From Patescibacteria group bacterium (GTDB lineage: Bacteria > Patescibacteriota > Minisyncoccia > Minisyncoccales > JAHIOY01): DNA of 25,009 nucleotides. Below, in pieces: positions 39 through 24,757 of the stretch. How positions within the stretch are numbered: the stretch's first letter is position 1; each line of letters begins with the position of its first letter. The stretch spans positions 1 through 25,009 of the forward strand of contig JAHIOY010000066.1 of the NCBI GenBank assembly GCA_018894495.1. Direction: 5' to 3'. The notes under the pieces were generated by a model, which was not told where the DNA came from, made no database searches, and saw nothing but the letters and a program-made list of their open reading frames with translations. The translations under genes and the position numbers were made by a program.

Positions 39-846
39 CATATGCTTCTCTTGTTACCAAAAGTATGGACTATACCATTTCCCCGCCTAATTTTTGTTTT
101 ACAAAATTTTGGCGGGGGCCAGCGTATAATGATGGGTTACATCATTAAACTCTCTTTATCTCTCGTGAGAGTTAAGTCTCTACGGGGTGCGAATACTAAT
201 TTTTGTAATTTCACTGAATAAGGTAAAATATTGTCTAAAAATTTTTCCGCCTCGTAGCGGGAAACATATAGACAAAATGTATTTGCGCTTTTATAGTAGT
301 AAACTTTCACATTGCTAATTCCAATTTTTTTGAGAATCTCTTTATCCATTTCTGTTTCATTTTTATTCCCGTAAACAATCCTGCAATCACTGCGTAAATT
401 TTTATCAATTGAACCATCGCCATCGAATCTGCCAGCGAAATACGCTTTAATTATGTTTTCTTTCTTTAAACTTTCTAAATTATCTTTGGCTTTTCTGAAT
501 TCTCTTAATAATGGTCGGCTATTCACAAACAAGTGATTTCTGTTAAATTTTATTCTACTTTTTGGAAAATGTGTTCCCAAAAATTTTCTAAATCTCTCAA
601 TTAAATCGGGGTCAGTATTGCTTAATCCAATCGAACTCGACCACCAATAACTATCAGCGCACCAAAGGCCAAGAATATAAGCATCTTCCTTTTTTGAAAA
701 GAAATTACAAAAATTAGTACTCGCACTTCCCACGGTATTACCCATTCTCCCATTATATCATGAAAGAACTCGGGTTTCACCGTTATGAGCTGGTTTTTCA
801 ATCCGCCTTACAGCGGAAAGGGTCGTATGCTTTTATAAAAAGCACC
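39..846 (-). mobile_element. Group I intron in 16S rRNA after approx. U1060 (808 nt)
   Basis: Removing it restores GCATGGTT|GTCGTCAGC. The 5' exon ends in U and the intron ends in G. The IGS ACGACC (821-826) pairs with the 5' exon (U-G at the splice site) and with the 3' exon. Core motifs present: ACGGTGAAACCC, AATACCGTGGGAAG, GTAGAGACT, GGTATAGTCC (67-76). Confidence 0.92.
137..745 (-). CDS. Intron-encoded LAGLIDADG homing endonuclease (two motifs)
   Basis: Motifs AYILGLWCADS and AYFAGRFDGDGS; lies inside the S1060 intron. The start codon is uncertain because it overlaps the ribozyme core. Confidence 0.88.
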   Translation of the reverse strand: MGNTVGSASTNFCNFFSKKEDAYILGLWCADSYWWSSSIGLSNTDPDLIERFRKFLGTHFPKSRIKFNRNHLFVNSRPLLREFRKAKDNLESLKKENIIKAYFAGRFDGDGSIDKNLRSDCRIVYGNKNETEMDKEILKKIGISNVKVYYYKSANTFCLYVSRYEAEKFLDNILPYSVKLQKLVFAPRRDLTLTRDKESLMM

Positions 847-988
847 AACCATGCAGCACCTGTCCGTTTGTCCTTGTGGGTGGCTCCGACTTTCATCAGA
901 GTTTCAAACGGATTTCTAGCCCTGGTAAGGTTCCTCGCTTATTGTCGAATTGAGCCACATGGTCCACCGCTTGTGTGAGTCCCCGTCT

Positions 989-1020
<32 letters not shown>

Positions 1021-1121
1021 TCCCAGGCGGGACACTTAACGCGTATGCTTCGCCACTTGAAGGGTCGACACTTCAAATAGCCAGTGTCCATAGTTTAGGG
1101 CGTGGAATACAAGGGTATCTA

Positions 1122-2018
1122 CATTATTGTTACTATTGCTTTTTAGCAATGGTTAGGACATTTCTGCCTAACTCTCCACATTACTGTGGAGATCGGACTA
1201 TATCATCACCGAGCACCTAAAATTTTACATGCTCGGGCTCGGCGTATAGTCTCTACAGGGCTATAGGAAATTTATATTTAAAACTCGGTAAAAGATATTT
1301 TTTCACAATTCGGTATAATTCTTTGATTTCTCTTTTCGGAAAATATAGTATCCACTTCCCCTTATTCCTTCTTAACGATGTTTCTAATTTAAAGTTCTTT
1401 CTGATAGTCTGACCTAATCGTCTTACCTCATTCTTTTTAAAAGAATGAGTTTGGATTGTCATTCCAAATGTATCGCTTGCGCCATCATCCATCAGAAACA
1501 CTGTTAAAGATAAAGGATGATAAAATATCTGGTCAATTTCACGGGGAATAATTTTTCGGGAATCTTTGTAAAATATTTTTCTGTATTTATTGAACACGAC
1601 ATGAGTAAGAGTTACAAACTGAATAAATTTATACTCTTTCTCTTTTACTTTCTGCGTAAAATAATTTAGTGGCATTAATACGATATTTTTAAAAACATCA
1701 TATTTCCACTTAATTAATTTTCGCTGATTCTCTGCGTGTTTAATAAATAATCGATAATTTCTTCCTCGTTTAGCCAAACTTCCATCGCCAAGCAAAGTGC
1801 CAATTAATACTAATTTTTGCCTTTCTGACAATTTGAATCTTGATTTTTTCAATATACCTTTTACGTTCATTAAAGTTTCCTAAGCTTCCCTCGGTATTGT
1901 CCTCTACTACCATAAGTAAAGGGGTTTCACCGATATAGCCAAGTTTTCTCATTTCTTTATTAGAAATGAGGGACTAATACTTTTACTTTATTATACCACA
2001 ATGGGTATCTAAAAGTTA
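1122..2018 (-). mobile_element. Group I intron in 16S rRNA after approx. U788 (897 nt)
   Basis: Removing it restores GGAT|TAGATACCC; terminal G. The IGS TTAGTCC (1971-1977) pairs with GGAU|UAA with a U-G wobble. Core motifs: ATCGGTGAAACCCC, AATACCGAGGGAAG, GTAGAGACTATAC (near 1243-1256), GATATAGTCC (near 1195-1204). Confidence 0.93.
1253..1870 (-). CDS. Intron-encoded LAGLIDADG homing endonuclease (LAGLIDADG_2-like)
   Basis: Motifs LIGTLLGDGSL and LTVFLMDDGA; stop codon lies in the intron R element. Confidence 0.92.
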   Translation of the reverse strand: MNVKGILKKSRFKLSERQKLVLIGTLLGDGSLAKRGRNYRLFIKHAENQRKLIKWKYDVFKNIVLMPLNYFTQKVKEKEYKFIQFVTLTHVVFNKYRKIFYKDSRKIIPREIDQIFYHPLSLTVFLMDDGASDTFGMTIQTHSFKKNEVRRLGQTIRKNFKLETSLRRNKGKWILYFPKREIKELYRIVKKYLLPSFKYKFPIAL

Positions 2019-2432
2019 ATCCTTTTTTATGCCCACGCTTTCGTCCCTCAGCGTCAGGGCCATCCCAGCTGATTGCCTTCGCTTTTGGTGTTCCGGCAGA
2101 TATCAACGGATTTCACCCCTACACCTGCCGTTCCATCAGCCCCTGAGACCCTCTAGTCTGGCAGTTTTTGACGCAGCCCTCAGGTTAAGCCCGAGGTATT
2201 TAACGCCAAATTTACCAGACCGCCTACGGACCCTTTACGCCCAATAAATCCGGATAACGCTTGGGGGTTCTGTATTACCGCTCCTGCTGGCACAGAATTA
2301 GGCCCCCCTTATTCCTCGCTTACTGTCAATCTTGCGATTTCATCAGCGAGAAAAGCCGTTTACGCTCCGAAGAACTTCTTCCGGCACGCGGCGTCGCTCG
2401 ATCAGGCTTTCGCCCATTGTCGAATATTCTCG

Positions 2433-2465
<33 letters not shown>

Positions 2466-2630
2466 GCAGTTCCATTGTTGGGGAACAAGCTCTCACTTCC
2501 CCTACCCGTCATCGCCTTGGTAGGCCATTACCCCACCAACTAGCTGATAGGCCGCAGACCATTCGCCGAGCGGCTTCTTGCGAAACCTTTACTGGTAACC
2601 GATTACTTACCGCAAAAACCGCTCGGCTCA

Positions 2631-2732
2631 AATTAAAAGTTAAAAATTAAAAGTGAAAAGTTGACGACGAAATTTCGTATAACTTTAAACTTTTAACCGT
2701 AACTTTTAACTTTGAACTTTGCACTTTTAACT
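2631..2732. repeat. Heptamer-periodic AT-rich hairpin (AAAGTTA/AAAGTGC type, 'family B') inserted in 16S V2
   Basis: Arms aattaaaagttaaaaattaaaagtgaaaagtt and aacttttaactttgaactttgcacttttaact lie between otherwise collinear 16S sequence. Confidence 0.85.
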
Positions 2733-2874
2733 CTTGCGAGAAATAATCGATCACCAGGCTATTGGGTATTAGCTCCGCTTTCGCGGAGTTATTCCCATCT
2801 CGGTGGTATGTATCTACGTGTTACTAACCCGTTCGCCGCTATCGCTCGCGCCTCGCTATGCTCGGCACTCGCTC

Positions 2875-2988
2875 AAGTTAAAAGTTAAAAATGTAAAGTT
2901 AAAAGTTGAATTCAAAGTTCAAAATTTTAATATAATAACTTTTGACTTTAAACTGTAACTTTTAATTTTTAACTTTGAACTTTTAACT
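2875..2988. repeat. Family B heptamer hairpin inserted in 16S V1 (helix 6), on a GC-rich REP-like base stem
   Basis: Arms aagttaaaagttaaaaatgtaaagttaaaagtt and aacttttaatttttaactttgaacttttaact. The flanking stem GTGCCTCACTGCGTTCGGCGC / GTGCCGAGCATAGCGAGGCGC extends helix 6 to about 190 nt. Confidence 0.85.
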
Positions 2989-3095
2989 GGAGTTCGCGCC
3001 GAACGCAGTGAGGCACGAACGACCGCACGACTTGCATGCCTTATCCACGCCGCCAGCGTTCATCCTGGACCAGGATCAAATCCTCAAAAATAATG

Positions 3096-3128
3096 TTCGT
3101 TAAAAATCAATTCGTGATTTTTAAACTA
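3096..3128. repeat. REP-like hairpin TTCGTTAAAAATCA-N5-TGATTTTTAAACTA in rRNA leader
   Basis: Same arms and flanks as the copies at 9319 and 10021. Confidence 0.75.
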
Positions 3129-3158
3129 GTCGGGACAACTCTAAAGAACCGTACTTTA

Positions 3159-3175
3159 TTCAGTTTTCAAAGTAC
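3159..3175 (-). promoter_or_regulatory. boxA-like rrn leader motif GTACTTTGAAAACTGAA
   Basis: Resembles the rrn antitermination boxA/leader motif; lies between promoter and 16S. Confidence 0.4.
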
Positions 3176-3263
3176 TTCCCTTTCGCTCTTCGCCTCTGCT
3201 TTATTTGCAGCAGCCGCAACAGCCGCCTTTCTTTTCGTCTTTCATATTGTCTCTTCAATTACA

Positions 3264-3291
3264 ACCTTACTCTTTAATAAATTCCTGTCAA
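3264..3291 (-). promoter_or_regulatory. Putative sigma70 rRNA promoter
   Basis: TTGACA (3286-3291), 16-nt spacer, TAAGGT (3264-3269), upstream of 16S. Confidence 0.6.
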
Positions 3292-3306
3292 GCCCCGCAG
3301 TAGATT

Positions 3307-3600
3307 TTATTTTGTCTCGGCGGGCTTCTTTTTCGGTTTTTTGTGTTTCGGGATTTTTTTGCCCGCGATAATTTTCTCCGAAATCAATAAATTATAAATG
3401 GTGGCCGAGGGTTTGGCTCCGACGGACAACCAGTATTTAACTCTGTCTGCTTTTAGAATTTTTTCTTTTGTTAGAGGATTCCAAAAACCAACCTCTTCCA
3501 CAAAAATCCCGGCTCTCGGCGGATTTTTTTTGTCAGTAACAACTATTTTAAAATTGGGTTGATTCTTTTTGCCGACGCGAAATAATCTTATAACTAGCAT
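3307..3600 (-). CDS. rpsP: 30S ribosomal protein S16
   Basis: MLVIRLFRVGKKNQPNFKIVV...EEVGFWNP...YWLSVGAKPS. Confidence 0.97.
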   Translation of the reverse strand: MLVIRLFRVGKKNQPNFKIVVTDKKNPPRAGIFVEEVGFWNPLTKEKILKADRVKYWLSVGAKPSATIYNLLISEKIIAGKKIPKHKKPKKKPAETK

Positions 3601-3606
3601 AATATT

Positions 3607-3634
3607 AATTTTTAATTTTTAATTTTTAATTTTT
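3607..3634. repeat. (AATTTTT)x4 heptamer tandem repeat filling rnc-rpsP gap
   Basis: Four perfect 7-nt units. Confidence 0.85.
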
Positions 3635-3639
3635 AAAAT

Positions 3640-4329
3640 CTACCAACCTTTTTGTTCAAGCGCATTTTTGGCTGCTTTTTCTTCTGCCTCTTGTTTTGAA
3701 GAGCCATCGCCCTTGGCTATCAGTTCTTCGTCAAGAAAGACACCGATAATAAAATGTTTGGCATGGTCGGGTCCCCATTCTTCTAATGCCTTATAGCCGG
3801 GGGTAATCCCAACCCTTTCCTGAGATTCTTCCTGGAAACGCGATTTGTTGTCTCTAAAAAGCCCTTTTTCAATAATTTCCGGCAGTTCAATGATTAAATT
3901 TTTATCAACAAATTCTTTGGCAGCTCCATAACCTTGGTCAAGATAAGTCGCACCAATTAACGCTTCCAAAGTATTGGCTAAAATGTATTGCCTGGCTTTG
4001 CCGAGCTCTTTTTGTTCGCCTTTGGATAATAATAAAAAATCATTCAAACCGAGGTCTTTGGCAATTTGGGAAAGGGTTTTGGCGTTAACCAAAGAGGCTC
4101 TCCAGCTTGTCAACTCGCCCTCTGACTTTTTGGGGTAATTCCGGTAAATGTATTCGGTAACCGCTAACTCCAAGACCGCATCTCCTAAAAATTCAAGCCG
4201 CTCGTTGTGCGCCAAATAAAAATTCGGATTTTCGTTTAAATAAGAGCGATGAACAAATGCCTGCGTCAATAAGTCCTTATTGTTAAATTTTAAACCAAAT
4301 TTCTTTTCAAGTAAAGAAAAATCTTTCAT
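3640..4329 (-). CDS. rnc: Ribonuclease III
   Basis: [13 protein letters not shown] signature; C-terminal dsRBD (GPDHAKHF...[12 protein letters not shown]). Confidence 0.98.
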
Positions 4330-4736
4330 AGTTGTTTATAGACCGTCCCCAAGACGCCATTGATAAATTTCCCGGACCTGTCTCCGCCAAACGCCTTTGC
4401 CAATTCAATGGCTTCGTTTATCGCCACTTTTGACGGAACGGCTTTTTTATCTCCATATAGAACCTCATATAATCCGAGTCGCAAAATATTCCTGTCAACT
4501 ATGCTTATCTGTTCAATCGGCCATTCCGAAGCCGTTTTTTCAATAAGATTATCAATTTCTTTTAAATGTGAAAGGACGCCGTTCACTAATTGTAAAGCAA
4601 ATTCATCGCTCAGTCCCGGTCCAAATTCTTTAATGTTTCTTTCTAAGATTTTTTTTAGGTCTGCCTTCTTTTCGTAAAAATCCCATTCATATAAACTTTG
4701 GATAGCGATGGCGCGCGATAAATACCGGCTTGACAT
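4326..4736 (-). CDS. nusB: Transcription antitermination factor NusB
   Basis: [13 protein letters not shown]...VDRNILRLG...[14 protein letters not shown]...FINGVLG. Confidence 0.97.
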
Positions 4737-4745
4737 AAATTTCTA

Positions 4746-4876
4746 AAATCCGAAATTCGAATATCGAAATTCGAAACAAATCCAAATAATTAAAATTTAA
4801 AATTCTAAACCGGTTTAATTTTTTGAATTTAGAATTTAGATATTGTTTCGGATTTCGTGCTTCGTGCTTCGAATTT
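4746..4876. repeat. Heptamer hairpin (AAATTCG/AAGCACG type, 'family A') filling rpmF-nusB gap
   Basis: Imperfect ~60-bp stem; shares 20 identical nt (4852-4871 = 9018-9037) with the insertion in rnhB. Confidence 0.88.
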
Positions 4877-5156
4877 ATCTCTTGGAAAGTTCTTCCATAT
4901 TTAAGGGTTTTTCTTTTTTTATTCCTTTGCTTTCTTTCAGTTCCTTCTCTTTTCTCTTTTTTTCTTTTTTTGTCAATTTTTTAAAAACATCAATTACCTC
5001 CACTCCCTTGTAATAACCACAAAGAGGACAAACCCGATGGGGTAAAATTAATTTCGCGCATTTTTGGCATTTAACTAAAAAAGGGGTCTTCAAAAAAATA
5101 TGCATCCGCCTTTTATTCCTTCTTGATTTTGTATGTCTTTGAGTTTGAACAGCCAT
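4875..5156 (-). CDS. rpmF: 50S ribosomal protein L32 (zinc-ribbon type, Lys-rich C-terminal tail)
   Basis: MAVQTQRHTKSRRNKRR...CQKC...PHRVCPLCGYY. Confidence 0.96.
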   Translation of the reverse strand: MAVQTQRHTKSRRNKRRMHIFLKTPFLVKCQKCAKLILPHRVCPLCGYYKGVEVIDVFKKLTKKEKKRKEKELKESKGIKKEKPLNMEELSKR

Positions 5157-5165
5157 ATATACTAC

Positions 5166-5194
5166 ACTATAGCAGAAGTTATTTATTCATTCAA
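5166..5194 (-). promoter_or_regulatory. Putative promoter of rpmF-nusB-rnc-rpsP
   Basis: TTGAAT - 17 nt - TATAGT with extended TG; -10 ends 9 nt before the ATG. Confidence 0.55.
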
Positions 5195-5203
5195 GTTCTA
5201 AAA

Positions 5204-5231
5204 CCCCAATGGCCAAACCCCAATGCCCAAA
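5204..5231. repeat. Heptamer half-arm CCCCAAT-GGCCAAA-CCCCAAT-GCCCAAA
   Basis: Four 7-nt units at the downstream edge of the accessory island. Confidence 0.6.
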
Positions 5232-5254
5232 CTTCATAAGTTTAAAGTTCATTG

Positions 5255-5278
5255 TCTCGAAAACGAAAGTTTTCGAGA
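5255..5278. repeat. Perfect 10-bp hairpin TCTCGAAAAC-GAAA-GTTTTCGAGA (possible terminator or REP)
   Basis: Perfect inverted repeat downstream of DUF2283; no clear U-tract. Confidence 0.6.
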
Positions 5279-5310
5279 AACTTGACCAAGAATATCCTAT
5301 TTCCTTTTAG

Positions 5311-5544
5311 CTATTTGCCCGTAACAGAAATTGGTTGTAAATTCACTAATTCAAGATGTAGCTTTTTATATTTCCGTTTGCGAAGATATCTTTTGGCGTC
5401 AAGAATCTCTATCCCAACCACTGAACCATCAGGAGCATAGTTTATTGCTATGTCTTCGCTAATTCGCTGAGTGATCACTTGAAAATCGCCGTCTTTTAAA
5501 CGGATATAAGCAGCATCAACTTTTGGATCGTAAATTATTTTCAT
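5311..5544 (-). CDS. DUF2283 domain protein (putative antitoxin)
   Basis: MKIIYDPKVDAAYIRL...GSVVGIEILDA. Confidence 0.88.
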   Translation of the reverse strand: MKIIYDPKVDAAYIRLKDGDFQVITQRISEDIAINYAPDGSVVGIEILDAKRYLRKRKYKKLHLELVNLQPISVTGK

Positions 5545-5551
5545 AATTTTG

Positions 5552-5806
5552 TTAGAAATAAAATGTATAAACTGTAATCACGATGATTTTATTTTGTTCT
5601 TCTTTAATTATTGGCATTATTTGTTTAATTCGATAGAATTTCTTACTCCATCTTTTGTTGAATTAAAAATTTTTACGATAAGTATGGCGATTTTCTTTAA
5701 CTGGTAGTTTTTCACTTGTTCTAATAGTGTCTATGACTTCATCTCTTGTGGCTCCTCGTTCTTGCATTTGAAGTAAAGCATGATTTGAGAAAACAACCAG
5801 TTTCAT
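5552..5806 (-). pseudogene. DUF4258-like (RelE-like) toxin interrupted by in-frame TAA at 5663-5665
   Basis: Manual translation: MKLVVFSNHALLQMQERGATRDEVIDTIRT...YRKNF*FNKRWSKKFYRIKQIMPIIKEEQNKIIVITVYTFYF*; directly upstream of DUF2283. Confidence 0.8.
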
Positions 5807-5889
5807 TTAAATAGTCTATCAATTCAAAAACCAAAAGTCAAATTAAATAGCCGGATTATCAGTTTATTCTTGAATTCTTCGTTATTCAT
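5803..5889 (-). pseudogene. Possible N-terminal remnant of a four-helix-bundle (IVS-type) protein
   Basis: MNNEEFKNKLIIRLFNLTFGF*IDRLFK*; directly preceded by a heptamer arm. Family assignment is from remembered similarity only. Confidence 0.45.
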
Positions 5890-5890
5890 A

Positions 5891-5927
5891 AACTTTTAAC
5901 TTTGAACTTTGCACTTTTAACTTTGCA
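5891..5927. repeat. Family B single arm
   Basis: 5891-5922 is identical to 2701-2732 in the 16S V2 hairpin. Confidence 0.88.
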
Positions 5928-5955
5928 GGAGTCGGGTCTCTGTCGGTTTTTTGAC

Positions 5956-6186
5956 TTAATCTCGTGGGAATTTAATAAATTCTTCAATAGTTATATTTAT
6001 GTCATCTATAATTCCTTTTAAGGTTTTCCTGCCTATATCTTTTCCTGAATGAATGGGAACGGTTACTCTGCGACCATCAGAATGCTTAAATTGAGCATGG
6101 CTACCAACTTGATGATGTTTATAAAAACCGAGTTTAATTAAAACTTGAATTAGTTCTTTTGATCTCAGGACGGGTAGTTTCGGCAT
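5956..6186 (-). CDS. hicA: HicA family mRNA interferase toxin
   Basis: LGFYKHHQVGSHAQFKH...VTVPIH...IGRKTLKGI. Confidence 0.93.
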   Translation of the reverse strand: MPKLPVLRSKELIQVLIKLGFYKHHQVGSHAQFKHSDGRRVTVPIHSGKDIGRKTLKGIIDDINITIEEFIKFPRD

Positions 6187-8381: not shown

Positions 8382-9170
8382 TTATATTAAAATACTCTTA
8401 ACTGGTTCAAATGTCAAACGGTGAATAGCCGAGGGGCCATATTTTTTTAGCATAGCCCGATGTTTTTTTGTTGGATATCCTTTGTGTTGGGCAAAACCAT
8501 ATTGGGGGTATTTCTTGTGATACCTTTTCATTATTTTATCCCGCCAGACCTTTGCCAAAATGCTTGCCGCGGCGCAGGAAAAAACTTTTTCATCTCCTTT
8601 GATAATTGACTTTTGAGGGATTTTCACATCAATTTTAAAGTTCCCATCTAAAATTAAAAAATCAACCTTACCACTTAACCAGCGATCGCCGTTTAAGTGG
8701 TAAAATTGGTGACAGCCCGCCCTCTGCAATTTTTTTCCTAAGTTTTTAATTGCTTTAATCATCGCCAATTTCGTCGCCTCCAAAATGTTAATTTTATCAA
8801 TCACTTTTTCTGAAACCCTGCCTATCCCCCACTCAATTTTAGGATGCGTAGTTAATATCTTATAGAATTTTTCTCGCGCCTTTGGAGAAAGTTTCTTAGA
8901 GTCACGAAGTTTTAAATCCGAAATCCGAAATCCGAAATCCGAAACAATATTTAAATTCAAAATTCTAAATTCTAAACTGTTTTGAATTTGGGATTTAGAT
9001 ATTAGGATTTGTTTCGAATTTCGTGCTTCGTGCTTCGGATTTTTAATCATTACTGCCCCTGCGACTACCGGTCCTGCGAGCGGACCTCTCCCTACCTCAT
9101 CTAATCCCACCACTCTTTTATATCCCCTTCTCCATAATTTTCTTTCTTCAAAAAAATTTGGATATTTCAT
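8382..9170 (-). CDS. rnhB: Ribonuclease HII with two in-frame hairpin-derived insertions
   Basis: GLDEVGRGPLAGPVVA, RDSKKLS, DG, KGDEK..SCAAASILAKV.RD, HKGYPT motifs. Confidence 0.96.
   Translation of the reverse strand: MKYPNFFEERKLWRRGYKRVVGLDEVGRGPLAGPVVAGAVMIKNPKHEARNSKQILISKSQIQNSLEFRILNLNIVSDFGFRISDLKLRDSKKLSPKAREKFYKILTTHPKIEWGIGRVSEKVIDKINILEATKLAMIKAIKNLGKKLQRAGCHQFYHLNGDRWLSGKVDFLILDGNFKIDVKIPQKSIIKGDEKVFSCAAASILAKVWRDKIMKRYHKKYPQYGFAQHKGYPTKKHRAMLKKYGPSAIHRLTFEPVKSILI
8913..9044. repeat. Family A heptamer hairpin inserted in frame in rnhB (about 44 codons)
   Basis: (aaatccg)x4 arm and ttcgtgcttcgtgcttcgg arm; encodes KNPKHEARNSKQ...SDFGFRISDL. Confidence 0.88.
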
Positions 9171-13223: not shown

Positions 13224-15035
13224 ATGACTATTGAAACAATTAGACATTCATTGGCACACATAATGGCAACTGCGGTGCAAGAATTGTATCCTGGCGCCAA
13301 ATTTGGCATTGGGCCGGCAATTGAAAACGGATTCTACTACGACTTTGCTTTGCCCGCCGACTTGTCCGCCGTAGCTTTAGCGAAGGTGGAAGCCTTTGGT
13401 GAAGGCGGGACTATTACTCCGGAGGATTTGCCGAAGATTGAAAAGAAAATGAGAGAATTAATTAAACAAAACATTTTTTTCAAAAAAGAAAAGTTGGCGA
13501 GGTTTGACGTCGCCAAACTATTTAAAAATCAACCCTATAAATTAGAACTAATTGAGGAAATTGCACGGGTGCAACCCGTGTCAATTTACGCATCAGGGGG
13601 CTTTGTTGATTTGTGCAAGGGACCGCATATCAAATCAACCCTTCAATTACATTCAGGGGAAGCCAAAGAAATAATTGATGCTTTCAAATTAACTAAAATT
13701 GCCGGCGCTTATTGGCGGGGTTCAGAAAAAAATCCGATGCTCACCAGAATTTACGGCATTGCTTTTCCGAGTAAACAAGAACTAGACGATTACTTAAGAC
13801 ACCAGGCAGAGAAAGAAAAACGAGACCACAGAATTTTAGGGGAAAAATTAGAACTGTTTATGATTGACGAGAAAATAGGAAAGGGCCTTCCGTTGTGGCT
13901 TCCCAAAGGATATTTTATCAGACATTTAATAGAAGATTATATTTATAAATTAGAACTAAAAAACGGATACCAGCATGTTTTAACCCCGCATTTAGCCAAG
14001 GAGGACTTGTATAAGACCTCAGGCCATTTGGCTCATTACAAAGAAAATATGTACGCGCCGATTGAAATTGAGGGAGAAAGATATTATTTGAAACCGATGA
14101 ATTGTCCGCACCACCACTCAATTTATAAAAACAAAATCCGCAGTTATCGCGATTTGCCATTAAGAATCGCGGAATTTGGGACGGTTTATCGCTACGAACG
14201 GTCCGGCGTGTTAAGCGGATTAATCCGCGTGCGCGGATTTACCCAAAACGACGCCCATATATATGTAACGCCGGAAAAATTAGAACAAGAAATTATTAAT
14301 TTCCTAAAATTGCACAAAAAGGTCTACGAGGATTTTAAAATTTCCAATTATTGGTTCAGATTATCGCTTCCCGATTTTAAAAACAAGGAAAAATTTGGCG
14401 ACATAAAAAATAAAAAAATGTGGGAAGAGGGGTCAACGGTTTTAGAAAGGGTCTTGAAAAAATTTGGCGTTAAATTCATTAAAGCCGAGGGCGAGGCCAC
14501 TTTTTACGGGCCGAAAATAGACATTCAAATCAAAAACATTCAAGGCAAGGAAGATACTATTGCCACAATCCAAGTTGATTATTATTCGGCTAATAAATTT
14601 AATTTGTCTTACATTGACAAAGACGGCAAAGAAAAACCGGTCATAGTTATCCATCGGGCGATACTCGGCTCTTTTGACAGATTTTTCGCTTTTCTGCTCG
14701 AGCAGACCGCTGGCGCTTTTCCGGTTTGGCTGGCCCCGGTCCAAGCGCGAATCATTCCAATTTCTGCTGAAAAACATCTTGACTATGCCAAAAAAATTTA
14801 CAATGAACTTTTGAAACAAGATATAAGGGCTGAATTAGACGAATCAAACGAGACCTTAGGCAAAAAAATCCGCAACGGAGAAATGCAAAAAATCCCCTAT
14901 CTTTTGGTTGTTGGCGACAAAGAAATGAAGGCAAAATCAGTCGGGGTCAGAGAAAGAGGCAAGGGCGACATTGGTATGATGAATTTGACTAAATTTTTGG
15001 AAAAGGCGAAAATAGAAATAGAAAAAAAGAAGTAA
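13224..15035 (+). CDS. thrS: Threonyl-tRNA synthetase
   Basis: RHSLAHIMA, DLCKGPH, KPMNCPHH, YRYERSG, VIHRAILGS..RF. Confidence 0.99.
   Translation: MTIETIRHSLAHIMATAVQELYPGAKFGIGPAIENGFYYDFALPADLSAVALAKVEAFGEGGTITPEDLPKIEKKMRELIKQNIFFKKEKLARFDVAKLFKNQPYKLELIEEIARVQPVSIYASGGFVDLCKGPHIKSTLQLHSGEAKEIIDAFKLTKIAGAYWRGSEKNPMLTRIYGIAFPSKQELDDYLRHQAEKEKRDHRILGEKLELFMIDEKIGKGLPLWLPKGYFIRHLIEDYIYKLELKNGYQHVLTPHLAKEDLYKTSGHLAHYKENMYAPIEIEGERYYLKPMNCPHHHSIYKNKIRSYRDLPLRIAEFGTVYRYERSGVLSGLIRVRGFTQNDAHIYVTPEKLEQEIINFLKLHKKVYEDFKISNYWFRLSLPDFKNKEKFGDIKNKKMWEEGSTVLERVLKKFGVKFIKAEGEATFYGPKIDIQIKNIQGKEDTIATIQVDYYSANKFNLSYIDKDGKEKPVIVIHRAILGSFDRFFAFLLEQTAGAFPVWLAPVQARIIPISAEKHLDYAKKIYNELLKQDIRAELDESNETLGKKIRNGEMQKIPYLLVVGDKEMKAKSVGVRERGKGDIGMMNLTKFLEKAKIEIEKKK
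13353..13409. repeat. 57-nt nested hairpin inserted in frame in thrS (PADLSAVALAKVEAFGEGG)
   Basis: cccgcc...ggcggg outer stem and tccgcc...ggtgga inner stem; exactly 19 codons. Confidence 0.75.
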
Positions 15036-15157
15036 TCAACGAATATCGAATCAATTACGAATAAACGAATAAACGAATTCGCAAATTCGTAATAAATTCG
15101 TTTTTCGCTGATTTGTTTATTCGCAAATTCGTAAAGAATTCGTTATTCGCTGATTTC
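15034..15157. repeat. CGAAT-rich hairpin ('family C') after thrS
   Basis: 15127-15155 is the reverse complement of 24661-24689 at 28/29 nt. Confidence 0.85.
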
Positions 15158-16845: not shown

Positions 16846-17847
16846 ATGAAATATCACATTATAACCTTTGGCTGTCAGATGAATAAATCGGATTCAGAAC
16901 GAATTGCTACGGTTTTGGAAAACAGGGGTTATCAACCGGCTTCAAATATTAATGAGGCTGATTTAATCGTGGTTAATATGTGCTCGGTCAGACAATCGGC
17001 CGTTGACCGAGTGTATGGCAAAATTTCTGACTTTGCCAAGTTAAAAGTTAAAAATGAAAAGTTAAAAGTTATTTTAACGGGTTGTATCACAAAAAGCGAT
17101 AAACGGAAATTTGAAAATAAATTTGACCAGATCCTAAAATTCAAGGATTTATTAAAAGAGCAGCCAAAATATCAAGATAAATCCATAGTTTATGTGCCGA
17201 TTTCCAGTGGCTGTAATAATGCCTGCACTTATTGCGTCGTGCCTTTTACCCGTGGTAGTTTAGTTTGCCGAGACCATCGGGAGATTTTAAAAGAAGTGAA
17301 AAAGGTAGTTCAAAATGGCGCCAAAGAGATATGGCTTTTGGGACAAAACGTGAATGACTATACCTCGCGCACGGATGGTTCAATTGATTTTTCCGAATTA
17401 TTGAGAATGATAAATGATATTCCCGGCGATTTCTTAATTAGATTCGTCTCTCCAAATCCTAAAAATTTCTCTGACAAATTAATTGAGACAATGGTCGGAG
17501 CGAAAAAAATTACCAAGTACCTTCATCTGCCCGTCCAATCAGGAGACAACGAAATTTTAAAAAAGATGAACCGGCCTTATACGGTTGAACAATATAAAAA
17601 TCTGGTTAAAAAAATTCGGAAAAAAATTCCGAAAATCAATTTATCAACCGACATTATTGTCGGTTTTCCCGGGGAGACAGAAAAACAATTCCAAAACACA
17701 GTGAAATTATTTAAAGAAATTAAATTTAATTATGCCTACATTGCTAAATATTCTCCAAGACCCGGAACAGCCGCCTTTAAATTAAAAGATGATGTTTCAT
17801 TAAAGGAGAAAAAGCGGAGATGGAAAATTTTAAATTCGTATATATGA
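16846..17847 (+). CDS. miaB: MiaB-like tRNA methylthiotransferase lacking TRAM domain
   Basis: FGCQMN, NMCSVR, TGC cysteines; radical SAM CNNACTYC; HLPVQSG; DIIVGFPGET; adjacent to miaA. Confidence 0.9.
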   Translation: MKYHIITFGCQMNKSDSERIATVLENRGYQPASNINEADLIVVNMCSVRQSAVDRVYGKISDFAKLKVKNEKLKVILTGCITKSDKRKFENKFDQILKFKDLLKEQPKYQDKSIVYVPISSGCNNACTYCVVPFTRGSLVCRDHREILKEVKKVVQNGAKEIWLLGQNVNDYTSRTDGSIDFSELLRMINDIPGDFLIRFVSPNPKNFSDKLIETMVGAKKITKYLHLPVQSGDNEILKKMNRPYTVEQYKNLVKKIRKKIPKINLSTDIIVGFPGETEKQFQNTVKLFKEIKFNYAYIAKYSPRPGTAAFKLKDDVSLKEKKRRWKILNSYI

Positions 17848-18770
17848 AAAAACTCATTGTTATTTTAGGACCAACGGCTGCGGGAAAAACTGAATTGGCG
17901 ATTAGATTAGCTAAAAAATTTGACGGCGAGATCGTTTCGGCCGATTCAAGGCAGGTCTATCGGGGAATGAATATCGGAACCGGCAAAATTACTAAGAAAG
18001 GCAGGGGCGGTATCCCCCACGAGCTTTTAGATGTTGCCAGTCCGAAAAGAAGGTTTACAGTTACTCAATATCAAAAATTGGCTCTTAAAGCATTAGAAAA
18101 GATTTTTAAAAAAGGAAAAATTCCGATTTTAGTTGGCGGAACAGGATTTTATATTCAAGCCGTAGTTGATGGGATAGTTATCCCCGAAGTAAGGCCGAAT
18201 TGGCGGTTGAGGTCTAACCTCAACAAACTTCCCGTTGAGGAACTTTATAAAATCTTAAAAAAACTTGACCCCAAAAGGGCGAAGACAATTGAAAAGGAAA
18301 ACCCAAGAAGATTGATTAGGGCAATTGAAATTGTAAAGAAAACAAAAAATCCAGTTCCGCCATTAAAATTCAATCCTCTCCCCTACCCTGTTTTGATGCT
18401 CGGAATTAAGAGACCAAAAAAAGAATTGGAAGAAAAAATAAAAAAAAGATTTTTTGAGTGGCTAAAAAGAGGGCTCATTTTGGAAGCAATAAAATTAAGG
18501 AAAATGGGGCTCTCTTTCAAAAGGATTGAAGAATTTGGAATGCACTATAGAGAAATTGCAAAATATTTACAAAATAAAATAGATGAAAAAGAAATGATTG
18601 AGAATTCGATAAAAGAAATCCAAAACTATGCTAAACGGCAAATGACTTGGTTTAAGCGCGACCCCGCACCAGAACCTTCGATTCGGTACGGGGCAGGCAA
18701 AAGAATTCTTTGGGTTCAAAATTACCGAATGGCAGAAAAATTAGTAAAAAATTTTTTGAAAAAAAAATAA
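17844..18770 (+). CDS. miaA: tRNA dimethylallyltransferase
   Basis: GPTAAGKT, SADSRQVYRGM.IGTGK, GGTGFY, YAKRQMTWF; ATGA overlap with the miaB stop. Confidence 0.97.
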   Translation: MKKLIVILGPTAAGKTELAIRLAKKFDGEIVSADSRQVYRGMNIGTGKITKKGRGGIPHELLDVASPKRRFTVTQYQKLALKALEKIFKKGKIPILVGGTGFYIQAVVDGIVIPEVRPNWRLRSNLNKLPVEELYKILKKLDPKRAKTIEKENPRRLIRAIEIVKKTKNPVPPLKFNPLPYPVLMLGIKRPKKELEEKIKKRFFEWLKRGLILEAIKLRKMGLSFKRIEEFGMHYREIAKYLQNKIDEKEMIENSIKEIQNYAKRQMTWFKRDPAPEPSIRYGAGKRILWVQNYRMAEKLVKNFLKKK

Positions 18771-24653: not shown

Positions 24654-24660
24654 ATTAATA

Positions 24661-24757
24661 AATCAACGAATAACGAATTCTTTACGAATATACGAATTTA
24701 AAAACTATATTATTCGTTATTCGTAAATTCGTAACATATTCGCTATTCGCTGATTTC
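24661..24757. repeat. Family C hairpin filling rplK-dcd gap
   Basis: aatcaacgaataacgaattctttacgaat ... attcgctattcgctgatttc; overlaps the last codons of rplK. Confidence 0.85.

Follow-up and report, generated by a model that had tools for sequence, protein, structure and literature searches.

To our knowledge, three matters have stood without explanation for decades: the origin of the intervening sequences (IVSs) of rRNA genes, the function of the protein family PF05635, of which structures have been solved, and the 7-base repeats present in excess in many bacterial genomes. Short insertions lacking an open reading frame (ORF) are said to have been described in 2015 by Brown et al. from rRNA genes of the candidate phyla radiation (CPR). 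Rickettsia palindromic elements (RPEs) are small palindromes of a reduced genome whose sites include intergenic gaps, RNA genes, and, in frame, protein genes; they are not known to be built of heptamers or to have an associated gene. Dispersed heptamer repeats are represented in cyanobacteria by the short tandemly repeated repetitive (STRR) sequences. Here, we describe a hairpin element with inverted AAAAGTT heptamer arms, two copies of which lie in the 16S rRNA gene on a 25,009-nucleotide (nt) contig of a Patescibacteria group bacterium (JAHIOY010000066.1, analyzed over its full length and hereafter called the window).

In Coxiella, the 23S IVS has a 28-bp stem and tandem GACAGAT heptamers before an S23p ORF, and it is excised by RNase III (PMC4990558); a gene set in heptamer arms is thus partly described in print. 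The same article also cites the S23p protein of Xanthomonas as a homopentamer. For CPR bacteria, Tsurumaki et al. (2024; PMC11270868) report 16S and 23S inserts of less than 200 bp that lack ORFs, belong to neither the group I nor the group II introns, and occupy classical IVS sites, as well as 23S_rRNA_IVP ORFs in some 16S and 23S inserts. TAACTGA repeats are known from Beggiatoaceae, Cyanobacteria, and Bacteroidetes (PMC4679880, from which the terms "four helix" and "intervening sequence" are absent), and GGGNATC repeats are known from Xanthomonas and Nostoc (PMC4692102). Our literature search found no paper linking heptamer repeats to the four-helix-bundle family, PMC4990558 and PMC11270868 coming closest.

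The window is one whole contig (C48) of a 1.01-Mb genome sampled from groundwater (37% GC, 89% complete, 154 contigs), and the proteins nearest to its leucyl-tRNA synthetase (LeuRS) and MiaB carry the names Nealsonbacteria or Parcubacteria/Patescibacteria. Its 16S rRNA gene (positions 566 to 3083, minus strand) is matched by Rfam model RF00177 in two pieces, 1026-3083 corresponding to model positions 9-873 (591 bits) and 566-1024 to positions 875-1387. Relative to the model, the loops of the V1 and V2 helices hold 162 and 145 additional nt, respectively, and the complete inserts measure about 190 and 157 nt. In the V1 insert, an IVS-type structure at the tip of helix 6 (2837-3028, minus strand), a GC-rich clamp stem (approximately 2837-2874 with 2989-3028) closes an AAAAGTT/AACTTTT hairpin at 2875-2988. 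The V2 insert (2596-2752, minus strand) carries a hairpin of the same units at 2630-2735 on a short extended stem. Both are predicted to fold strongly, as almost perfect hairpins, with free energies of -86.6 kcal/mol for V1 (z = -11.4) and -52.4 kcal/mol for V2 (z = -7.5) and 0 of 200 shuffles as good in either case.

The preliminary description of this DNA had placed heptamer hairpins in both variable regions and had matched one arm of each to a distant site, and these observations were reproduced. The V2 arm at 2701-2732 is identical to 5891-5922 over 32/32 nt, where 100 shuffles gave an expectation of 0 matches, and the V1 arm at 2874-2907 agrees with 17037-17070, in a miaB-like gene, at 33 of 34 positions. 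Identical contig pieces, one of them spanning 2703-2987, are present in two DNA sequencing runs from other studies (X4 and X7). These contigs reproduce the V2-V1 stretch piecewise and thereby rule out an assembly artefact of a single sample. The 16S rRNA gene also contains a group I intron signal (1174-1359) and LAGLIDADG ORFs (LAGLIDADG_2 at 1253-1870 and LAGLIDADG_3 at 137-745), and its 3' third aligns poorly.

The genome's own 23S rRNA gene, on contig C122, holds two further clamped AAAAGTT hairpin inserts (G000:C122:4554-4744 and 5858-6012, corresponding to L064 555-745 and 1858-2012), near the 5' end and at helix 45. The helix-45 insert, whose position was assigned by reading the flanking sequence, consists of a GC-rich clamp and an AAAAGTT hairpin and aligns with the 16S V1 insert, clamp included; some 160 nt separate the other from the 5' end of the 23S gene. 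The long terminal stem that characterizes IVSs is seen at both 23S sites (z = -12.5 at helix 45 and -8.4 at the second) as it is in V1 and V2. Beyond these inserts, the 23S rRNA gene shows a further group I intron-like signal.

The same arms bracket a gene elsewhere in the genome. TIGR02436 has four matches, the best of them at C150:6617-6988 (123 amino acids [aa]; 107.6 bits against a cutoff of 24). Among solved structures, the product of this gene matches 2RLD (9e-17) and 2GSC (2.5e-4), both of which were deposited with 5 chains. An AAAAGTT array extends up to the ATG of the gene, and an AACTTTT array begins directly after its stop codon; the other three TIGR02436 matches are flanked by arrays of different units. 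A link to reverse transcriptases or diversity-generating retroelements was rejected, there being no RVT_1 match in this 89%-complete genome and an Avd score far below the cutoff (NF033474, 16.9 bits against 80).

A shortened copy of this arrangement lies in the window at 5810-5950 on the minus strand, between the hicA stop codon and the ATG of a DUF4258 gene. It is composed of a motif resembling repetitive extragenic palindromes (REPs), AAAAACCGACAGAGACCCGACTCCTG (5950-5923), a 5' arm (5925-5891), an ATG with the first 17 codons (5889-5839), and the distal end of a 3' arm (about 5838-5810). The ORF, whose ATG (5889-5887) adjoins the arm, opens MNNEEFKNKLIIRLFNLTFGF and then meets a stop. Fifteen of the first 18 residues of MNNEEFKNKLIIRLFNL are identical to the N terminus of the C150 protein, and the arm-ATG junctions of the two copies are 93% identical over 44 nt. 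The same unit of REP-like motif, arm, ATG, and first codons recurs before different small genes at C118:2166, C118:2854, C41:938, and C128:578. Both C118 copies and the C41 copy break after codon 17, as the window copy does, and continue into sequence that, when aligned by eye, corresponds to the distal 3'-arm end; the C128 copy is shorter and ends after some 12 to 14 codons. At 5810-5950, the arm-gene-arm cassette has lost its interior and kept both ends, and this internal-deletion derivative has multiplied. It had been taken for a decayed four-helix-bundle ORF; the kinship is probable, and random decay is not borne out, since the deletion is defined and present in several copies. A hidden Markov model (HMM) search of the 21-aa remnant (5827-5889, minus strand) gave no match; the remnant is too short, the HMM match of C150 starting at residue 13, and kinship is suggested instead by the N-terminal identity and the shared junction.

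At the 3' end of the derivative stands a promoter-like TTGACT-17-TAGACT with an upstream TG (5841-5813, minus strand). In the window, C118, and C41, the truncated copies end in this -35 TTGACT and extended -10, and a different toxin-antitoxin gene follows closely in each case. Truncated cassette copies may be portable promoters, and selection on the promoter-like sequence could be helping the derivative to spread.

These copies belong to a large repeat family. Across the whole genome, exact runs of period 7 number 143, whereas no other period between 4 and 12 yields more than 7. Tandem Repeats Finder (TRF) reports about 200 arrays of at least 25 unit types, and the lengths of solo arrays peak sharply at 30-36 nt, with no decaying distribution. 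The AAAAGTT family accounts for 74 loci, made up of 21 hairpins, 25 solo arms in long ORFs, and 28 solo noncoding arms. All 21 arm-loop-arm hairpins are noncoding, and all are ordered AAAAGTT...AACTTTT, as around the C150 gene. A hairpin subfamily of 104 nt has about 10 copies with a median identity of 95%, which differ mainly by 7-nt indels. Terminal inverted repeats of the kind known from transposons and miniature inverted-repeat transposable elements are present in the form of the inverted heptamer arms, and the deletion derivative retains both ends.

To place the element in its wider setting, we compared genomes that belong, at closest, to the same order. TIGR02436 genes occur in 71 of 151 genomes of the order. 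Both flanks are available at 27 four-helix-bundle loci and are complementary to each other (at least 16/20) at 15 of them, versus 0 of 24 control ORFs from the same loci; the P value of 6e-6 for this contrast is indicative only, the relatives not being independent. The heptamer unit varies from locus to locus among these genes. The proposed association of arms with four-helix-bundle genes is thus borne out both at C150 and across the order.

V1 and V2 were sized in about 30 order-level relatives with a readable spacing of conserved blocks. V2 is short in all of them except G034, where it is enlarged and not heptamer built, so that a heptamer insert at V2 is found in none of the approximately 30; the region measures 65-87 nt in most relatives versus 216 nt here. 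In V1, most relatives are short, for example G030 with 37 nt versus 190 nt here, and about 7 or 8 are enlarged. This sporadic occurrence is that of an IVS, and the relatives lack the uniform V1 and V2 helices that the preliminary description had named as the mark of an ancient expansion.

The enlarged V1 tips that were read (all but that of G035) consist of different repeat units; the tip of G021 is not clearly repeat built. Our genome's clamp stem recurs in G024, G036, G015, and G017, under tips of other units, in one case an octamer. The V1 tip of G006 belongs to the AAATTCG/CGTGCTT family, which is intergenic in the window at 4745-4877 and 8913-9043. G006 has about 15 copies of this family, including a 98% twin of its 134-nt V1 hairpin within its 23S rRNA, and its four-helix-bundle fragment is flanked by arms of the same family. 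The V1 tip likewise comes from the genome's own dispersed family in G024 (4 copies) and G015 (about 8 partial copies) and does not in G036. The helix tip therefore appears to be a site refilled from each genome's own pool. The rRNA tip and the arms of the four-helix-bundle gene are of one family in our genome and in G006; in G024, G015, and G036, they are not.

TRF arrays in open frames of at least 150 codons number 89 and read as 7-aa-periodic peptides (KLKVKSEKLKV, NSKFKIQNSKF, and NPKSKIQNPKS, for example). In LeuRS, however, 2 of the 4 "arrays" that TRF reports are either native sequence that is conserved or same-site arrays, orthologues of 85% identity having arrays built of different units at these two positions, so the figure of 89 overstates the true insertions. 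What is specific to this genome in LeuRS is a REP-like 45-nt insert and a C-terminal extension. EF4 carries two arrays that form extra loops of 10 and 7 aa relative to the solved EF4 of T. thermophilus, which makes them in-frame insertions of the Rickettsia type.

The AAAAGTT-type array of 33 nt in the miaB-like gene (17038-17071, plus strand) reads KLKVKNEKLKV and is instead a same-length replacement. Compared with 11 of 12 homologues, the site is unchanged in length, and its 11 residues read KLKTKNEKLKT in most of them. In the closest orthologue (84% identical), the DNA runs AAA CTT AAA ACT..., versus AAG TTA AAA GTT... here, and the changes, both synonymous and nonsynonymous, all go toward the arm consensus. 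Every relative has a 33-nt heptamer array at this position (AAACTAA-type in P0124), and ours is 33/33 identical to that of a more distant orthologue, P0130, the flanks of which are just 83% and 66% identical. The protein and DNA alignments rule out an insertion at this native, length-conserved 11-codon position. The pattern suggests templated overwriting of the heptamer array native to this site. In one close relative (L070, about 2404-2440, against window 17820-17850), a 30-nt AAACTAT array stands at the start of miaA, and a 33-nt REP-like in-frame insert stands in miaB; our genome has neither.

Taken together, these data make it probable that an IVS-type hairpin element with inverted AAAAGTT arms, the complete form of which is the C150 cassette, is present in V1 and V2 as copies without the gene. 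At the level of nucleotide sequence, the rRNA inserts, cassette, derivative, hairpins, and solo arms are demonstrably homologous, and their many copies, sporadic and replaceable occupancy, and 7-nt slippage are equally evident. In the scheme that we propose, the complete form would be a 123-aa four-helix-bundle gene (TIGR02436/PF05635, "23S rRNA IVS protein" or S23p) set exactly between arms, which occurs once in the genome. Internal deletion would have produced the form with an arm, 17 codons, and an arm end, as at 5810-5950. Further loss would have left the arm-loop-arm hairpins at the helix tips of 16S (V1 and V2) and 23S (two sites, helix 45 among them) and between genes, and single 33-nt arms would be translated in frame within proteins. 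By analogy with described IVSs, the 50- to 85-bp stems would be excised from the rRNA precursor by RNase III without religation, and such removal would explain how the element is tolerated in essential RNAs. The arrays themselves would be copied from array to array by a templated, conversion-like process aided by 7-nt slippage, and the four-helix-bundle protein may bind the arms.

A candidate processing enzyme for the inserts is the RNase III that would be made from rnc (3640-4329, minus strand), which is on the same strand as the 16S gene, upstream of it, and matches Pfam Ribonucleas_3_3 (8.7e-41) and dsrm. The minus strand here carries, in order, rpmF, nusB, rnc, rpsP, and the 16S rRNA gene. 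A (TAATTTT)n run (3605-3636) fills the 39 nt that separate rnc from rpsP.

A bolder version of this scheme gives the protein an active part, and we regard it as improbable. The four-helix-bundle protein, having pentameric relatives, would read five consecutive heptamers, in keeping with the arm quantum of about 33 nt, and would drive or guide templated array-to-array copying with no transposase or reverse transcriptase. If true, a mobile element of a new kind would be at work, installing and exchanging heptamer arrays at rRNA tips, in intergenic gaps, and in coding loops, and the classical rRNA IVSs would be merely the most visible members of an array-copying element.

Several observations speak against a mobile IVS-type element. 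No consistent target-site duplication is seen around the 21 hairpins. The element neither contains nor adjoins a transposase, nuclease, or reverse transcriptase gene, and the search for RVT_1 covered an 89%-complete genome. There is a single intact four-helix-bundle gene of the AAAAGTT arm type per 74 loci, a count in which hairpins at contig ends may in part have been entered twice. Some coding arms, namely, miaB and the LeuRS sites, are native or in situ arrays and not insertions. Finally, we found 24 sequencing runs, of which the six RNA runs contain just 11-16% of the sampled words; in two metatranscriptomes, X15 and X17, depth is zero over sequence unique to this organism, and the apparent "joints" in their RNA are short V1 loops of other organisms. 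The earlier proposal of a mobile arm-ORF-arm element with empty forms in rRNA, intergenic gaps, and coding DNA survives in the main and needs correction in counting miaB as an insertion and in taking the window ORF for a product of decay.

One alternative is that these sequences are host RNA or DNA structures under selection rather than selfish DNA, whether RNase III processing or stability signals, 5'-untranslated-region or promoter modules, or retained expansion segments, with the four-helix-bundle protein as a partner. Such roles would suit elements that adjoin start and stop codons, truncated copies that place a -35 and extended -10 before different toxin-antitoxin genes, a V1 clamp stem conserved across families of the order, and an arm length quantized near 33 nt. 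They fit poorly with a V2 that is short in nearly all sized relatives, with V1 tips swapped for unrelated units, with arms translated as arbitrary 11-aa loops in many housekeeping proteins, and with a family composition that varies between relatives of 85% identity. We consider host structures an unlikely explanation.

A second alternative needs no movement at all. Replication slippage specific to 7 nt would build and homogenize arrays in A-rich sequence, with hairpins and families as by-products. The exact 7-nt indels between copies, the different units at the same two LeuRS sites, the heptamer array at the miaB site of all relatives, and the presence of at least 25 different units in one genome are all in its favor. 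Slippage in place cannot, however, account for a 33-nt arm that recurs at dozens of loci with its internal variants unchanged, for a deletion derivative with an identical breakpoint at several sites, for the 98% twin hairpins in the 16S and 23S rRNA of G006, or for a miaB array identical at 33/33 between lineages whose flanks are 66-83% identical. We judge an origin in situ to be quite unlikely.

Mobilization in trans by HUH Y1 transposases, either IS200-like or REP-associated tyrosine transposases (RAYTs), as with REPs and the REP doublets called REPINs, is very improbable: the genome does have seven PF01797 matches (four above the cutoff, in open frames of about 185-340 aa; G000 contigs C79, C34, C17, C68, C86, C125, and C31), such enzymes act on DNA hairpins, and REP-like palindromes stand in frame in LeuRS, miaA, and gatB, but each Y1 gene is flanked, visibly so in most cases, by a GC-rich REP-like palindrome of its own, with heptamer flanks at 0 of 7, and the heptamer arms border four-helix-bundle genes instead. 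The cassette encodes no transposase and the Y1 genes carry other repeats, which speaks against a RAYT-type pairing of repeat and cognate enzyme. Relative to a genome of 72-86% identity, the REP-like in-frame inserts measure 45 nt in LeuRS, 36 nt in miaA (window approximately 18662), and 42 nt near the 3' end of gatB (approximately 19164).

Other repeat families are also present in the window. A second hairpin family, of AAATCCG/AAATTCG ... CGTGCTTCG units, is represented by inverted copies at 4745-4877 and 8913-9043, about 4 kb apart, that enclose rpmF, toxin-antitoxin genes, an fn3 protein, and a 109-aa ORF; at 8914-9037, it is translated in frame within the N-terminal part of RNase HII (8382-9170). 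A third family, of ACGAATA/AACGAAT units, lies in two intergenic gaps (15034-15157 and 24660-24757), and a copy on contig C7 lengthens the C terminus of LeuRS. A short palindrome, TCTCGAAAAC-GAAA-GTTTTCGAGA (approximately 5255-5285), has 15 copies in the genome; in ORFs such as that of LeuRS, it reads SRKRKFSRN, often beside heptamer arrays.

With the mobile IVS-type element as the preferred reading, this genome would unite rRNA IVSs, the PF05635 gene, and the heptamer excess as forms of one element family. The cassette, a multicopy deletion derivative, gene-less hairpins in both rRNAs, and translated solo arms coexist in one genome. The apparent miaB overwrite is a concrete case that points to conversion-based copying rather than cut-and-paste movement. 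In practical terms, the inserts lengthen and may fragment the 16S rRNA of CPR bacteria and disturb V1-V2 amplicon surveys.

The closest described relatives of the element are the ORF-bearing 23S IVSs of Leptospira and of Coxiella burnetii, the latter with S23p (PMC4990558). As here, these sit at the tips of variable helices, including helix 45, their terminal inverted repeats form a long stem, heptamers stand beside the ORF, the ORF belongs to the PF05635/TIGR02436 family, and occurrence is sporadic. Unlike them, the rRNA copies described here are gene-less and extend to V1 and V2 of 16S, the gene being carried by a copy that is not in rRNA. Long, pure heptamer arrays form the arms, and the family numbers about 74 copies, some within protein genes. 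The short CPR inserts are left uncharacterized in the available part of PMC11270868, which draws no link to dispersed heptamer hairpins, non-rRNA cassettes, or coding arrays. The STRR, TAACTGA, and GGGNATC repeats (PMC4679880 and PMC4692102 for the latter two) resemble the present family in their genome-wide 7-nt excess, preference for small copy numbers, and proximity to start and stop codons, but they have been described mainly as direct arrays between genes, unconnected with rRNA inserts or a four-helix-bundle gene. RPEs share no sequence relation with our element, in which it is mostly single 33-nt arms, and not a whole palindrome, that are translated. The REPIN-RAYT system offers the same layout of a single-copy gene flanked by a genome-dispersed repeat, together with nonautonomous hairpin copies; here, in contrast, the flanked gene encodes a four-helix bundle with no known catalytic activity, and the RAYT-like genes of the genome bear other, GC-rich repeats.

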